Below, piece by piece: positions 2,087-20,275 of a DNA stretch of 64,000 nt. The notes under the pieces are model-generated. The model saw nothing but the letters and a program-made list of their open reading frames with translations. It was not told where the DNA came from and did not search any database. Location of the stretch: positions 4,682 to 68,681 of the forward strand of contig JAMPDT010000003.1 of assembly GCA_023665525.1 (NCBI GenBank), in the 5' to 3' direction. Position 1 is the stretch's first letter. Every line of letters begins with the position of its first letter. The translations under genes and the position numbers were made by a program. This stretch comes from Butyrivibrio sp. (GTDB lineage Bacteria; Bacillota; Clostridia; Lachnospirales; Lachnospiraceae).

Positions 2087-3238
2087 ATGGCGAGAGAAGC
2101 GGTAAGAACGCTTTCAACCAAAAAAGAGCTTCAGGAAACGCTTGACCGCAAGAACACGGTAAGGGCTTTTTTGTCGGCTCTTATTCATCTCGTTGCGATA
2201 CCTGTCCTTATTTTGATTATCCGTTTGACCGATATGTACGGCGGACTTTCCTCCCGAATAATAATTTATTTGGCTGTGTGCGAGGGCGTGCAGCTTGTTT
2301 TCGCAGTATGGGGTTATTATGTTATATCGCGCAATGAGATGGACAGGCGCGTTTTTTACAATAACTCCTGTTTTTTTGTCACGGTGCTCTGTATTGTGGC
2401 GATGGCGGGCATCGACAGGTATAATACGGGAAGCTTCGTCTTTTATTTGCTCGGACTGCTTTACGCGGCTCTCGTTCCTATAATGCAGAGGGGACTGCGG
2501 AGGCTTTACGGCGCGGTGTTTGCCGCGGGCAGCGTCGCTTCCGTTTTAATCGCGCGCGCTTCGGGAAGAAGCATTGCGGACGCCGCCCTGATCGGGCTTG
2601 CCGCCTTTATCGCCTGCGATACGGTGCATAACTGCGCGTCGGAATACGTCAGAATGGGGATAAATCTCCGCGCGAAAACGATAACCTCGGAGAAGGATCC
2701 GCTCACGGGGCTTATGAACAGGCGCGGGCTCGACAAAAACGCGGCTGTGCTGTGGCCCTACTGCTCGAGAACCTCGACCCCTGTCGGCATAATAGAGATT
2801 GATATTGATTTTTTCAAAAAATACAACGACCGCTTCGGACACCCCGCGGGCGACAGGTGCCTTAAGCTGATTGCGAAATCCATAAAGCAGTCGGCAAGGA
2901 GAAGCTCCGATATAACGGCGAGAACGGGTGGAGAGGAATTTCTGATTTTCGTACAGGGAATGAGCGAGGAAGAAATAATTGATTTTGCCATGAAAATACG
3001 CGGCGGCATAAACGATTTGAAGATTCCGCACGCTTACGCGGGAGTGTCGAACTACGTTACCGTCAGCATGGGCACCGCCTGCTGCGTCCCGAATGCCTTA
3101 AACTCCTTTGACGAGCTGTACGAGGAGGCGGACAGGGCGCTCTATACCGCGAAGCAAAACGGGCGAAACTGCGTCGTGTCGGGCAACAGGATTTACGGAA
3201 GAATGAAGAAGGGGCTTGCCACAGTGATTTCCTCGTAA
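2087..3238 (+). CDS. Membrane-bound diguanylate cyclase (GGDEF)
   Basis: Multiple N-terminal TMs; DPLTGLMNRR, DIDFFKKYNDRFGH, GGEEF; I-site RSSD five residues upstream of GGEEF. Confidence 0.92.
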   Translation: MAREAVRTLSTKKELQETLDRKNTVRAFLSALIHLVAIPVLILIIRLTDMYGGLSSRIIIYLAVCEGVQLVFAVWGYYVISRNEMDRRVFYNNSCFFVTVLCIVAMAGIDRYNTGSFVFYLLGLLYAALVPIMQRGLRRLYGAVFAAGSVASVLIARASGRSIADAALIGLAAFIACDTVHNCASEYVRMGINLRAKTITSEKDPLTGLMNRRGLDKNAAVLWPYCSRTSTPVGIIEIDIDFFKKYNDRFGHPAGDRCLKLIAKSIKQSARRSSDITARTGGEEFLIFVQGMSEEEIIDFAMKIRGGINDLKIPHAYAGVSNYVTVSMGTACCVPNALNSFDELYEEADRALYTAKQNGRNCVVSGNRIYGRMKKGLATVISS

Positions 3239-3242
3239 TTAT

Positions 3243-3358
3243 AAAGGAAAACTGCAAGCGCCGACAACGACCCTTGCAGTTTTCTAAGGATATATGTGGG
3301 TTATTTTCAGAGCCTAAGCTCTGAGTAAGAGGGGGGAGTAAGAATTTTGTTCTTACAT
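3243..3358 (-). ncRNA. Candidate small RNA (~115 nt) with two hairpins and a C-rich linker
   Basis: Promoter TTGACT-18-TATAAT upstream. 7-bp hairpins at 3338-3356 and 3307-3324 flank UCCCCCCUCU. Ends at the terminator; the first ATG is followed immediately by a stop. Confidence 0.45.
3247..3284. terminator. Bidirectional intrinsic terminator
   Basis: 12-bp stem GAAAACTGCAAG / CTTGCAGTTTTC with T tracts on both strands. Confidence 0.75.
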
Positions 3359-3362
3359 TGCC

Positions 3363-3392
3363 ATTATATTAAGAAGCTTACGGCACAGTCAA
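3363..3392 (-). promoter_or_regulatory. SigA-type promoter (TTGACT-N18-TATAAT)
   Basis: Near-consensus -35 and perfect -10 on the minus strand, downstream of padR. Confidence 0.6.
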
Positions 3393-3451
3393 CAAGATTC
3401 GACAGACAAAAATCGTCACCGAAACGACAAATGTCGAAAAATGTGCCGCTC

Positions 3452-3802
3452 TTATTTGCGCGGCGCTGCTTCGCATATGCTTAAAAGCTTTTCGACCGCG
3501 CCGACCTGCTCGCGAAACTTCTTGATTAGCGCCTTAAGCTTTTCACGCCCCGCGTCCGTTATGCGGTAATAGACCATTACGCGCCTGCGTCCCGAGGTTT
3601 TCTCGTAGTATTCCACATAATTATTGTCCGACATTTTGTACAGTATAAGATACATTGCTCCCGTAGTAACGGATAATTTTCCGTCGCTTAAGGTTTTGAT
3701 TTCCTTGTACATTTGAGAGCCGTACATATCCTGCCTTGATAGCAGTGATAAAAAAATAATTTCCCAAGGGGTATTTTTGGCATTTGTTCTTTTGTTTTCC
3801 AT
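3452..3802 (-). CDS. PadR family transcriptional regulator
   Basis: IILSLL..QDMYGSQM, GAMYLILYKM, YYRITDAG winged-helix pattern. ATG 3802 follows SD GAGGTG. Confidence 0.88.
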   Translation of the reverse strand: MENKRTNAKNTPWEIIFLSLLSRQDMYGSQMYKEIKTLSDGKLSVTTGAMYLILYKMSDNNYVEYYEKTSGRRRVMVYYRITDAGREKLKALIKKFREQVGAVEKLLSICEAAPRK

Positions 3803-3996
3803 ATTTGTCACCTCGTATTATCTATATTTTAATAATAGACTGAATTTGAAAATAATACAAGCCTTTTTTCTACACAAACGTAAAAATATTTCACTAACAG
3901 TAAAAAACAACCCATCCGTGAGGAAAATACGTCAGCCAAACGGGGATTTTTTGAGAATAATATTAATATATATGTAAAAAGCCGTTTTGGAAATAT

Positions 3997-4815
3997 ATGA
4001 TGAAATTCTTAAAAAAAATCTTAAGGTCTGCCAAAGAGCATCGGACGCGCGCGCTCCTGCTCCTTTGCGCCGCCTTGCTTTTAATCGGGGCGGCGGTCTA
4101 CATACCGTACCGCAGGATAAGCTCCGCGTCCTCCAATATCTCCAAGCGCGAGCTGCCGATATACAGTGTCGATACGGAGGAAAAAAAGGTGGCTCTTTCG
4201 TTTGACGCGGCGTGGGGTAACGAGGACACCCATACGCTTCTGGATATTCTCGCGAAGCATGACGTTCATGTGACGTTTTTTATGACGGGAGGCTGGATAG
4301 AAAGCTATCCCGACGATGTGAAGGCTATTGCCGCCGCGGGACATGATTTGGGCAACCACAGCGAGAACCATAAGGAGATGAGCAAGCTTAACGGGAAGCA
4401 GTGCGAGGAGGAGCTGATGGAGCCGCATGATAAGGTAAAGGCGCTTACGGGAGAGGATATGTTCCTTTTCAGACCGCCCTACGGGGATTACAACGATAAT
4501 CTTATAAAATCGGCGGAAAAATGCGGGTACTATACGATACAATGGGACGTTGACAGCCTTGACTGGAAGGATTACGGAGCCGACAATATTGTGAGCAGGG
4601 TGCTGAACCATAAAAACCTTAGAAACGGCTCGATAATTCTGATGCACAACGGCGCGAAATACACAAAGGACGCGCTTGAGAGGGTGATTGTGGGTCTGCG
4701 CGAGCAGGGCTACACAATCGTTCCGATTTCCGAGCTGATTTATACGGACAATTACACCATTGACAATACGGGCAGGCAGATCCCGTCCGCGCCGAGGGAG
4801 AAGGAAACGACATAG
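3997..4815 (+). CDS. Polysaccharide deacetylase, PdaB-like
   Basis: Intact NodB motifs SFDAAWG, GNHSENH, FRPPYG, DSLDW, ILMHN; N-terminal TM. Confidence 0.88.
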   Translation: MMKFLKKILRSAKEHRTRALLLLCAALLLIGAAVYIPYRRISSASSNISKRELPIYSVDTEEKKVALSFDAAWGNEDTHTLLDILAKHDVHVTFFMTGGWIESYPDDVKAIAAAGHDLGNHSENHKEMSKLNGKQCEEELMEPHDKVKALTGEDMFLFRPPYGDYNDNLIKSAEKCGYYTIQWDVDSLDWKDYGADNIVSRVLNHKNLRNGSIILMHNGAKYTKDALERVIVGLREQGYTIVPISELIYTDNYTIDNTGRQIPSAPREKETT

Positions 4816-4836
4816 CGGCAGCCGAAAGGCTCGAGG

Positions 4837-4865
4837 CGGCGCGGGCGTTGAACCGCGCCGTTTTT
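4837..4865 (+). terminator. Intrinsic terminator
   Basis: CGGCGCGG/CCGCGCCG stem followed by TTTTT. Confidence 0.7.
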
Positions 4866-4868
4866 ATT

Positions 4869-5345
4869 CTATTGTTTGTCAAGCGCCCTGTAATGCTGCC
4901 AATGTATCCCTATATGACCGACTCCGAGTATTGCCGCCGCGGCGGGCAGCCATATTACCCTGCCGTATACGCCCAGCAAAAAGAAGGCGGCGACGGGCAG
5001 GACCGCGCCCGGCAGAGGGATTCCCATAAAGCTTCGGTAAAAATCCCGCAGGGTCTTTTCGCCGCGGAAATAACGGAGCCACCAAAGCTCGTATAACGCC
5101 ATTAAGAAAAAAGCCGCCGCAAGCCACAGCGACCACGGCTCCAATCCGTGCAAATTAAAATCGGAAAATATCAGGACCAGGCAGCTTACCGACGCTTCGC
5201 CGATTCTTTCAAAAACAAGAAGCAGTCTGCTTTCGTTTTCCGCGGAATAGCCCTGCGGTATATTTTTTGTCCATATAATATTGGGAATAAAAAGCAGCAG
5301 AAGAAAAATCAAGCCAATATACGAGAAGCCGAAATGACCGTACAT
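4869..5345 (-). CDS. Hypothetical membrane protein (4-5 TM)
   Basis: 158-aa hydrophobic ORF with a divergent promoter region upstream. Confidence 0.75.
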   Translation of the reverse strand: MYGHFGFSYIGLIFLLLLFIPNIIWTKNIPQGYSAENESRLLLVFERIGEASVSCLVLIFSDFNLHGLEPWSLWLAAAFFLMALYELWWLRYFRGEKTLRDFYRSFMGIPLPGAVLPVAAFFLLGVYGRVIWLPAAAAILGVGHIGIHWQHYRALDKQ

Positions 5346-16759: not shown

Positions 16760-16766
16760 GGAATTT

Positions 16767-16793
16767 AAAGGGAGGGCTTGCCCTCCCTTTTTT
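16767..16793 (+). terminator. Intrinsic terminator
   Basis: AAAGGGAGGG/CCCTCCCTTT stem followed by a T run. Confidence 0.85.
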
Positions 16794-17619
16794 GTTGCGC
16801 CGCAAAGCAATGCGTCGGGCGCGTGCCGGGCAGTTTTGTCTACGTTTTTCGTGAAGTGTAGCTTTTTAGGCGTAGAATGCAGTTCCAAGGGGTGAAAAAT
16901 AAGATATAATTATAAAGTACTTTTGATTACGCAACGGAGGATAAAATTATGAGCCAAAAGCAAATAATAAGAAAATTACTTTCGGCATTTACGGCGTTTG
17001 TAATGCTTGCCATGCCTGCCGCGGCGGCGGTCCCGGCGGACAGGACTTACGCCGGGAACGAAAGCGCGGCGGAGGCGTCTTACAGCACGGACGGCGGAAA
17101 AACATGGACGGACGTGGAGAAATTAGCAGATATTAATGCGGTTACGGACTATATGACTAAAGACAATACGATTCTGCGTCTCAATAAGGATATTGAGCTG
17201 GGAAGCGGTTCGATTGTTCCCGTTATTAACGGGAATCATACGACCATAGACGGACAGGGACACACAATCAGCCGCGGGAGCTGCAATGCGCAGATGTTTA
17301 CCCTGAGCGGCGAGGGCGCCGTGACCTTTAAGAATATAGTAATCGACGGCGGCGCGCTTTGGGACGACGCCTCCGATGTGCAGAACCGTACAAACGATGA
17401 CGGCTATAAGAGCAGCGGAACCACCAATATTATTTATATCGCGAATGATGAAGCGTCGGCGATTCTGGAGAGCGGAACAATTTTGCAGAACAACGATCTG
17501 GAACAGGCGTCCTTCAACGGCGCGGGCGTGTCGATTGCCGCCGGCAGTCTTGTTATGAAGGACGGAGCGGTTATCCGTAATTGCAGCGCGACGGGCACGA
17601 GCAGCGCCGGAGGCGGCGC

Positions 17620-17628
17620 GGGGGGGGG
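17620..17628 (+). repeat. Homopolymer G9 (candidate slipped-strand switch)
   Basis: GCG GGG GGG G GTG; removing one G fuses the two ORFs. Confidence 0.8.
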
Positions 17629-19157
17629 TGCAGGTCGGCAGCGGCTGTGCTTTTGAAATGGAGGGCGGCGAGATTTACGGCTGCTATGCCTCCGTGAGCG
17701 GAGGAGCCGTTATAAACGAGGGAATGTTTAATTTTACGGGCGGCAAAATATATTCAAACGCGTCGGGCAATAACGGCGGCGCGCTTGTCTCGAAGGGAAC
17801 GACGCTTATAAGCGGCGGAAAAATATACGGCAGCGCCTCTCCCAACGGCGGCGGAATCATAACGTGGAGCGGGGAGCTGACGCTGGAATCGGGAGAAATA
17901 TACGGCAATACCGCTTCAAGGAACGGCGGCGGTATTTATCATAACGGCGGAATCGTTAAGCTGTGCGGAGATACGAGGATTGCGGACAACGAGGGCGGAA
18001 ATCTCTATCTGCCGACAGGCAGGACCGTGAAGGCGGCGGATTTATCGCAAAAAGCAAGCGTGGGAGTGACGACGGCGGCTGCGCCCGCAGACGGAGCGTC
18101 CGTCAAGGTTACTGACGGCGGCGGTTCCGATTACCGTGAATATTTTCACAGCGACGGCGATCTGTACGAGGTGATTAACGGAGAGGGCAACGCGGTCTGC
18201 CTCAGGCTGTTTCCCTTTGAAACGGAGGTAAATTCGGACGGCTCGGACACGCTTATTATACGCGGCTATACGGGCGGGGACGAAAAGGTTGTGATTCCCG
18301 AGCGCATAGGCGGCAAAACCGTAACGGAGGTGTATGACCTCGGCGGCAGATCGGACGTTGCCTCGGTCACGATTCCAAAGACCGTTTCACAGATATGCGG
18401 CGGGGCGTTTTATTCGCTGCCCAATTTGAAGGAGGTGCGTTTCGACGGATTAAACGACGACGCCGTAACCGTAGGTGCCAAAGCCTTTCCCGACAGCCTT
18501 GAAAAAATATATTTCCCGTCGGGACTGACCGATTCGGACATAAAGGCAAAAATGGGACTTGACATATTCCCCGAGGGCGCGGCGCTTTATTCGGGAGACG
18601 TAGTGCTGCCGCATGATTTTTCCGATTATGATTCGGACGAGAGCAGACATTGGCAGGTTTGCGCGGCGTGCGGCGAAATAAAGCCCGACAGCGCGAAGGA
18701 GCATTCGGGCGCGGGAGAATACGAAAAGGTAAGCGATACGCATCACCGTCGGCTGTGCGAATGCGGTCTGCAAATAGACACGCTTCATGAATGGAATGAG
18801 GAGGTGATTACGGTTCCCGCCACGGAAGCCGAGGACGGAGAGGCAAAATATACCTGTACCCTTTGCGGCGCCGAGACGCTGAAAGCGGTTCCCGCCTTGG
18901 GACACACCCACAAATGGGGCGAATGGAGCATAACCTCTGCGCCGAGCGAGACTTTGGGAGGTACGGCGGAGCGGATATGCGAGGGCAATTCAGAGCATAA
19001 GGAGGAGCTTTCGCTTCCGAATCTTAAGGACGGCGCGGTATGGACGGCGGGAGCGAGAGTTGAGCCGACGAAAGATCGCGACGGCTCGCAGGAGTACACG
19101 AGCGTCTACGGAAAGGTTACGGTTATTCTTCCCAAAACGGGAGGCGGAGCCGATACG

Positions 19158-19229
19158 CCTGAGGAGCCGACCTCACCTGAGGAGCCGACAGATCCCGAAG
19201 AACCGACCTCGCCCGAGGAGCCGACAACG
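19158..19229 (+). repeat. 4 x 18-bp tandem repeat (PEEPT[S/D/T])
   Basis: cctgaggagccgacctca-like units. Confidence 0.9.
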
Positions 19230-19992
19230 CCCGTCGATCCCGACGACGGAAGCCTTGCGGAGGATACGCAGATAGGAGCCGACGCGCCGAGGGCGGAGTT
19301 TTCGATGACGCTCGAGAAGCTTGCCGGTGCGGTTCTGACGGAGCAAGAGCTCGCAAAAATAAAGGACGGCGTTGACATAAAGATTATCCTGACGGTTGAG
19401 GACGCGCGGAATACGGCTTCCGCCGAGGATAAAACGGCTGTGGAGGACGCGTTGAGGGGGCTGGACGGCTATAAGCTCGGACAGTACCTCGACATAGGTC
19501 TTATCAAGGAGATCGGGGAGGCGCGCGAAAGGGTCGTCAAAACCTCGAAGCCCATAGCCGTAACGCTTGAGCTGCCAGAGGAGCTTTTGGGCAAAAACAG
19601 AAGCTGCGCGATAATACGCATTCATGACGGCAGGGCTGATATATTGGAGGATCGGGACGATAATCCGAATACGGTTACCGTTGAAACCGACCTGTTTTCG
19701 ACCTACGCAATCGTATTTTACGAGGAGAGGACGCCTGTCGCGACGGGCGTAAAATCCGCCGCCGCGCTTTGTGTCGCGCTCGGAGTATGCGCTCTGCTTA
19801 TGCTTGCGCTTCTCTGTTTTACGACGGGCAGGAACGGAATGTCCGAGGAAAAGAAGGAGCGTATTTTCTCAGGGCTTGTCGCTTGGGGAAAGAAGGGCGG
19901 AAGGCTTCGCACGCGCATTGCGCTGGCGCTGATTTTCCTTCTGCTGAGCTTTTATTACTGCATAGGCAAAAGGACCTTGCCCGAAAAACAGC

Positions 19993-20021
19993 TTGACAGC
20001 AGCTTTAAATAGTGTTATGTT
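19993..20021 (+). promoter_or_regulatory. SigA promoter for the T-box-pheST leader
   Basis: TTGACA-17-TATGTT with a TG extension; lies in the 3' end of the upstream CDS. Confidence 0.6.
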
Positions 20022-20038
20022 GGTAACAAGTTTTGATA

Positions 20039-20275
20039 AAGGCTGTGAAGGCACACAGTAGTCAGCGAAAAGCACCGACAGAGAGAAGAGGTCGTCGGCT
20101 GTAAGCCTCTTCGGGTTAAGTCCGCTGACGAATTTCATGCCGGAGCCGCGGTCCTTAAAGCGCAGGCGAGTAGGGACCGACGTCAATGCACGTTACGCAT
20201 AGAGTGCCGATTTACTGCAATCGGAATCAGGGTGGTACCGCGATTAACCTCGTCCCTTTGGGGACGGGGTTTTTT
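20039..20275 (+). ncRNA. T-box riboswitch (Phe)
   Basis: T-box AATCAGGGTGGTACCGCG at 20225-20242; AGAGA/GCTG stem I motifs; probable specifier TTC at 20134-20136; terminator AACCTCGTCCC-GGGACGGGGTT plus T run; directly upstream of pheS. Confidence 0.93.

Follow-up and report, generated by a model that had tools for sequence, protein, structure and literature searches.

The window, as the whole 64-kb stretch of DNA analysed here is called, belongs to a metagenome-assembled genome of an uncultured gut Clostridia bacterium (190 contigs, 2.52 Mb, N50 of 19 kb, 50% GC, and three 100-N gaps). Between asd and pheST it carries two forward-strand open reading frames, ORF1 and ORF2, which meet at a run of guanines (Table 1). 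Read directly from the sequence, this run contains exactly nine G's, is the site at which the frame breaks, and is the sole G or C run of at least 7 nucleotides in the window. ORF1 ends 9 codons past it. A consensus promoter scan called no promoter upstream of ORF1, because the −35 region is weak.

Table 1. Features of the interval between asd and pheST and of its borders (window positions)
Feature	Position	Strand	Description
asd terminator; left edge of the slot	16767-16790	+	10-pair hairpin, then a T run; asd stop and terminator align with those of the sister genomes G019 and G008
Possible −10 box, TATAAT	16905-16910	+	Read by eye
Possible ribosome-binding site, GGAGG	16936-16940	+	8 nt ahead of the ATG; read by eye
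ORF1	16949-17656	+	235 aa; signal-peptide-like N terminus (MSQKQIIRKLLSAFTAFVMLAMPAAAAVPAD), SYSTDGGxTW motif, first beta-helix-head coils
G9 tract	17620-17628	+	Frame-break site
ORF2	17628-20012	+	794 aa; GTG start within the G9 tract
Remaining Gly-rich beta-helix-head coils (start of ORF2)	17628-18221	+	Homologue alignment and P0003 model
BspA-like leucine-rich-repeat (LRR) segment, one only	18246-18611	+	PF13306 below cut-off; kept in the G019 locus protein
Cys/His-rich repeats (HxW..C..CG), then Pro-rich (PEEPT) linker	18612-19247	+	From the translation; common to the G019 protein
Conserved C-terminal globular domain (..GQYLDI..RIHDG..TVETDLFSTYAIVFY)	19248-19727	+	Aligned in P0002-P0005 and G019
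Anchor module: PVATG, transmembrane helix 1, GMSEEKK amphipathic helix, transmembrane helix 2	19728-19973	+	
pheST promoter, TTGACA-17-TATGTT; right edge of the slot	19993-20021	+	Overlaps the gene's last codons and stop
T-box leader of pheS/pheT	20036-20260	+	RF00230, 122.9 bits; context, outside the gene

Reading frames and intact homologues

Deletion of one G in silico yields a single open frame of 1020 aa that reads ..SAGGGAGGVQVGSGCAFEMEGG.. and has the predicted junction peptide ..AGGVQVGSGCAFEMEGGEIYG... The fusion of ORF1 and ORF2 into a protein of ~1020 aa on loss of one G from G9, which the original prediction had proposed, was therefore reproduced, with the same junction sequence. 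Computed products were full length for tracts of G5, G8, and G11 (1019 to 1021 aa), were stopped at ~235 aa for G6, G9, and G12, and were stopped at ~249 aa for G7, G10, and G13, the non-ON range being 234 to 250 aa. The tract lies at codon 224 of 1020, i.e., 22% into the gene. By a simple model of independent bases, a G9 run would not be improbable; for this genome it is nevertheless unusual, given the low counts of G/C runs and GGG-GGG dicodons described below.

Comparison with relatives supports descent of both ORFs from one ancestral gene that probably underwent a +1G frameshift at a slippage-prone G9 run. First, a search of the joined protein against ~5.8 billion proteins found three intact homologues (P0002, P0003, and P0004; 812 to 832 aa) with 51 to 55% identity over the head, to which the N-terminal 420 residues of the joined protein align. 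ORF1 matches their N-terminal part up to ‘..VIRNNSA.GT...GGGG’, and the next residues of these homologues, ‘..SGC.F.M.GGEIYGNYAS.GGAV..’, correspond to ORF2 without a gap, which bears out the earlier remark that the repeat pattern continues across the join. Chance concatenation of ORF1 and ORF2 was dismissed because these intact homologues span the join. Second, ORF2 residues 198 to 783 (586 residues) are 58% identical, with no stops, to the protein encoded at the same locus in a sister species (G019). The gene has only one lesion, as had been claimed: the joined frame is open over 1020 codons, and both of its ends align to relatives.

The G run itself is not shared with these relatives. Homologue codons at the Gly run are mixed (TGG GGA GGA GGC GGC; GGC GGT GGC GGT GGC; GGA GGC GGC GGC), and no homologue examined has a homopolymer at the equivalent site, so the tract is lineage specific rather than conserved.

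Searches for other alleles recovered only the allele in the window. An exact-flank DNA pattern with a variable G tract had 0 matches in metagenome contigs, and a protein-guided scan of metagenome contigs found relatives of ≤50% identity only; the corresponding scan of genome contigs found only relatives of 33 to 41%. Neither the full joined protein nor a 303-aa piece centered on the join had a near-identical allele or fragment in the 5.8-billion-protein collection, and exact look-up placed each ORF on a single contig.

Predicted architecture of the joined protein

The product is predicted to be a secreted, membrane- or wall-anchored beta-helix/LRR protein, and its location would be the cell surface. 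In the AlphaFold model of homologue P0003, the mean pLDDT is 61, with values of 70 to 94 over residues ~110 to 480, which form periodic short strands. The equivalent of the join (residues ~283 to 292) falls inside this predicted beta-helix domain, so that a complete head should not form from either fragment by itself. Foldseek comparison with the PDB gave weak matches only, none of them significant (best E value, 0.02), every one of them to a right-handed beta-helix protein (Rhombotarget A, PL6/PL3 lyases, RbmB, the binding region of L. reuteri SRRP, and phage tailspikes).

Searches of Pfam and NCBIfam found nothing above threshold for the joined protein; PF20585 and PF13229 were not reached, and the C-terminal globular domain had no match. 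The BspA-type LRR family PF13306 scored 18.1 to 18.5 bits, below its gathering cut-off of 27.7. The label ‘adhesin’ is thus only a reasonable guess from the architecture, since no family was above threshold and the Foldseek matches were weak, and a glycan-lyase head is equally compatible with the data.

The C-terminal module of homologues P0002 to P0007 consists of an xPxTG-like motif (EPKTGD; PVATG in the window protein), a transmembrane helix, RGMSEExK, an amphipathic helix (WAKKGG), and a second transmembrane helix ending in YYHSIGKK. The P0003 model has helices at residues 729 to 750, 759 to 775, and 778 to 803, in the anchor region. This arrangement is unusual and has no Pfam or NCBIfam match. 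Sortase signals do not normally extend beyond the first helix; past PVATG and the first helix, the window protein runs for ~50 more residues, including the second helix. The sortase-B target model TIGR03063 scored 14.1 in P0003, against a cut-off of 18.15, and had no match in the window protein.

The slot between asd and pheST

The same chromosomal position differs in content between close relatives. In G008, whose Asd and PheS are 95% and 96% identical to those of the window, the slot, within the region G008:C54:28200-30800, is empty, with an asd-pheS gap of ~370 bp, and CCCGAAAAACAGCTTGACA directly follows the asd terminator. The same sequence forms the last codons of the window gene: at window positions 19975 to 20021, the last ~11 codons and the stop correspond to what is, in G008, plain intergenic DNA with the pheS −35 box. 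The end of the gene is therefore built of G008-like intergenic sequence with a −35 box, so that its 3′ end overlaps the pheST promoter.

In G019, whose Asd is 96% identical, the slot (within the region G019:C1:24400-32500) is occupied by a LytTR/GHKL two-component system together with a protein of 1009 aa. The last 594 residues of this protein (LRR, Cys-rich repeats, Pro-rich stalk, C-terminal domain, and anchor) are the part that matches ORF2 residues 198 to 783 at 58% identity, and its first ~400 residues are unrelated to the beta-helix head. A homologue of that head was found in none of 22 same-genus genomes. With a head like that of P0002 to P0004 and a stalk like that of G019, the window gene appears to be a mosaic in a fluid accessory slot. 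The contents of the slot (window positions 16760 to 20035) suggest that head domains are exchanged at one fixed place in the chromosome, and from these comparisons the gene appears dispensable and the locus fluid.

A further homologue of the beta-helix head, P0054 (333 aa; ENA ERZ27288454 k119_35964, 2654-5344), also adjoins a LytTR/GHKL pair, as the G019 gene does. Its candidacy as a second truncation at a G run was rejected, as it is cut by an inserted element encoding a large serine recombinase.

Origin of the G9 allele and comparison with known systems

On balance, we consider it probable that G9 is truly present in the sampled population and that the gene is a null (OFF) allele made by slippage, without evidence of selection for switching. 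The ancestral gene would have encoded an exported protein of ~1020 aa with, in order, a signal peptide, a right-handed beta-helix head, BspA-like LRR, Cys-rich repeats, a Pro-rich stalk, a C-terminal domain, and a two-helix membrane anchor, the in-frame state being GCG GGG GGG GTG (G8). After addition of one G by replication slippage, translation would run 9 codons further and end midway through the beta-helix, and a G9 cell would make at most a 235-aa secreted stub. A signal-less ORF2 product might arise by re-initiation at the GTG, with GGAGG 13 nt upstream, and could not reach the surface; as ORF2 has no signal peptide even if re-initiated, surface display would be off. Because a G9/G8 run is intrinsically hypermutable, reversion from G9 to G8 should be far more frequent than ordinary mutation, which would make the tract a switch in principle, and a move to G11 would be the other easy route to restoration. 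We infer that G9 exists in the organism and was not introduced by the consensus, that it probably arose by slippage, and that it would be reversible.

The original prediction of an adhesin gene switched OFF thus stands in so far as one gene appears to be split by a +1G at G9 and to be restorable by G8 or G11; its ‘adhesin’ part derives from architecture, no curated family having reached threshold. Most simply, the allele would have lost function recently, in an accessory surface-protein slot that is dispensable and evolves fast, and nothing indicates that the tract has been selected as a switch. G9 could be the majority state of a mixed G8/G9 population. The lack of a second lesion is equally expected of a maintained phase-variable gene and so counts against the plain null reading.

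An evolved contingency locus, in which selection keeps the poly-G tract and the gene alternates at high frequency between ON (G8/G11) and OFF (G9/G10) states, e.g., under antibody, phage, or niche pressure, is a tentative alternative that we regard as somewhat unlikely. A tract of nine G's is long enough for frequent slippage, the gene is otherwise intact, its predicted product is a surface protein, and the locus is hypervariable. G runs are also avoided elsewhere in this genome: among 4020 Gly-Gly pairs, GGG-GGG dicodons were observed 22 times against ~94 expected, a four-fold depletion, so that codon usage by itself would not be expected to produce a coding run of G8/G9. The presence of such a run in a surface-protein gene despite this depletion gives a mild hint that mutability has been selected for. 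Switching of surface proteins by slipped-strand mispairing is, moreover, established in other bacteria, including Gram-positives (PMC2831843; bioRxiv 10.1101/2020.09.16.300947).

Against selection for switching stand the absence of the tract from every homologue examined and the lack of any tract-length variant on record in the protein and metagenome collections searched. The tract also lies 224 codons into the gene and does not closely follow the start codon or the signal peptide, whereas evolved switches are usually at the 5′ end. Nor is there a second coding poly-G gate in the genome. G or C runs of at least 7 number 11 in 2.52 Mb, two of them of length 9; eight of the 11 lie in intact in-frame ORFs, mostly housekeeping and including two G8 runs, two are 5′-untranslated-region (5′-UTR) or Shine-Dalgarno (SD) elements, and only the G9 in the window splits a gene. 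The 22 congeners have 0 to 3 runs of at least G9 per genome; most of these are intergenic and lie a short way ahead of genes, and no long gene is split by one. Such runs are missing from 11 of the 23 genomes searched, and G019 likewise has none. A genome- or genus-wide ‘phasome’ was therefore rejected, there being no second coding poly-G gate in this genome and none in the 22 congeners. Mismatch repair counts against a contingency locus as well: mutS1 and mutL are intact, so that a mutator background is neither needed nor indicated. We consider it unlikely that this spore-forming gut Clostridia commensal combines a true poly-G switch with head exchange at the asd-pheST slot, which would couple a slow exchange of cassettes to rapid ON/OFF slippage in a cell with intact mismatch repair.

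An artefact of assembly or consensus, in which the organism has G8 (or G11) and an intact gene and the extra G comes from sequencing or assembly of the genome from a metagenome, is improbable. The genome is fragmented, homopolymers are the commonest site of indel errors, and the sequence is the sole copy on record. However, frame-break signatures, defined as places where one long ORF stops and a different frame opens on that strand, mark 32 of 1657 homopolymer runs (1.9%), compared with 70 of 5000 random positions (1.4%). With the rate at homopolymers close to that at random positions, the assembly has no general homopolymer indel problem and no genome-wide excess of frame breaks at such runs, and neither of the two other coding G8 runs, nor any coding G7/C7 run, disrupts its reading frame. 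A noisy long-read assembly was rejected as unlikely, as the frame breaks show no homopolymer excess. With short reads at normal depth, the consensus length of a 9-mer is rarely wrong, which likewise speaks against an artefact.

Recoding of a fixed G9, giving a set low level of full-length protein by +1 ribosomal slippage of tRNA-Gly on GGG GGG or by RNA polymerase slippage on the G run, is very improbable: GGG_GGG_GGT permits perfect +1 re-pairing, the next codon, GGT, is the rarest Gly codon in the genome (9%), and an SD-like GGAGG lies 9 nt upstream, but this spacing differs from that of the known prfB +1 site, and the shift site is conserved in no homologue, all of which are single-frame without a slippery run. 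Transcriptional slippage, in addition, is documented mainly for A/T runs (PMC2831843 treats Buchnera poly-A).

Several noncoding tracts in the genus were noted in the same survey. The other G9 of this genome (G000:C170:9407-9415) lies downstream of the −10-like GATATAAT; a mini-ORF of 6 codons (MIDYIN) begins 9 nt after the tract, ahead of a response-regulator gene. A G8 (G000:C168:17033-17040) forms the SD sequence of another gene; these two 5′-UTR runs could modulate expression if their lengths vary. Longer tracts, C12/G12 (G015:C112:904-915) and G10 (G011:C160:195-204), lie directly upstream of ORFs of 300 to 360 aa in two congeners and are better candidates for promoter or 5′-UTR switches in the genus than any coding tract.

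Among known systems in the Firmicutes, the one functionally closest is inlA of Listeria monocytogenes. There, as proposed here for the window gene, a one-base change in a lineage-specific coding homopolymer, a poly(A) tract, truncates an anchored surface protein with LRRs (Orsi et al. 2010, PMC2831843). Reversion of inlA is possible but infrequent, and both switching and recurrence in populations were shown experimentally (PMC2831843). Unlike the A7 of inlA, which is near the 5′ end, the G9 described here is at codon 224. The poly-G/C contingency genes of Neisseria, Haemophilus, Campylobacter, and Helicobacter (e.g., pilC and the LOS and capsule genes) similarly have a coding G run of 8 to 11 that sets the frame of a surface-structure gene (PMC5084427, PMC3025981). 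Those tracts are conserved among strains, numerous within a genome (‘phasome’), variable in length within populations, and usually near the 5′ end (PMC5084427, PMC3025981); in contrast, conservation and multiplicity were tested for the present tract and neither was found.

The poly-C tract of the NanH3 sialidase of Gardnerella, a mucosal commensal or opportunist, provides a Gram-positive parallel in which a coding homopolymer gates a cell-wall-associated protein (bioRxiv 10.1101/2020.09.16.300947). Variation in its length has been demonstrated among and within isolates, whereas one allele only is available here.

Mycobacterium tuberculosis is not known to have canonical MutS/MutL, unlike this genome, which has both mutS and mutL. 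Its homopolymer frameshifts resemble the present case in that they concern isolated coding homopolymers with no obvious evolved ‘phasome’, and across thousands of genomes they mark recurrent, reversible sites of loss of function (PMC10334774).

For annotation, the practical value is that two ORFs deposited as separate proteins would be recognized as one frameshifted gene in a head-swapping asd-pheST slot. If the tract does switch, it would document slipped-strand phase variation in a mismatch-repair-proficient gut Clostridia commensal, and such switching would bear on the evasion of IgA or phage by these bacteria.
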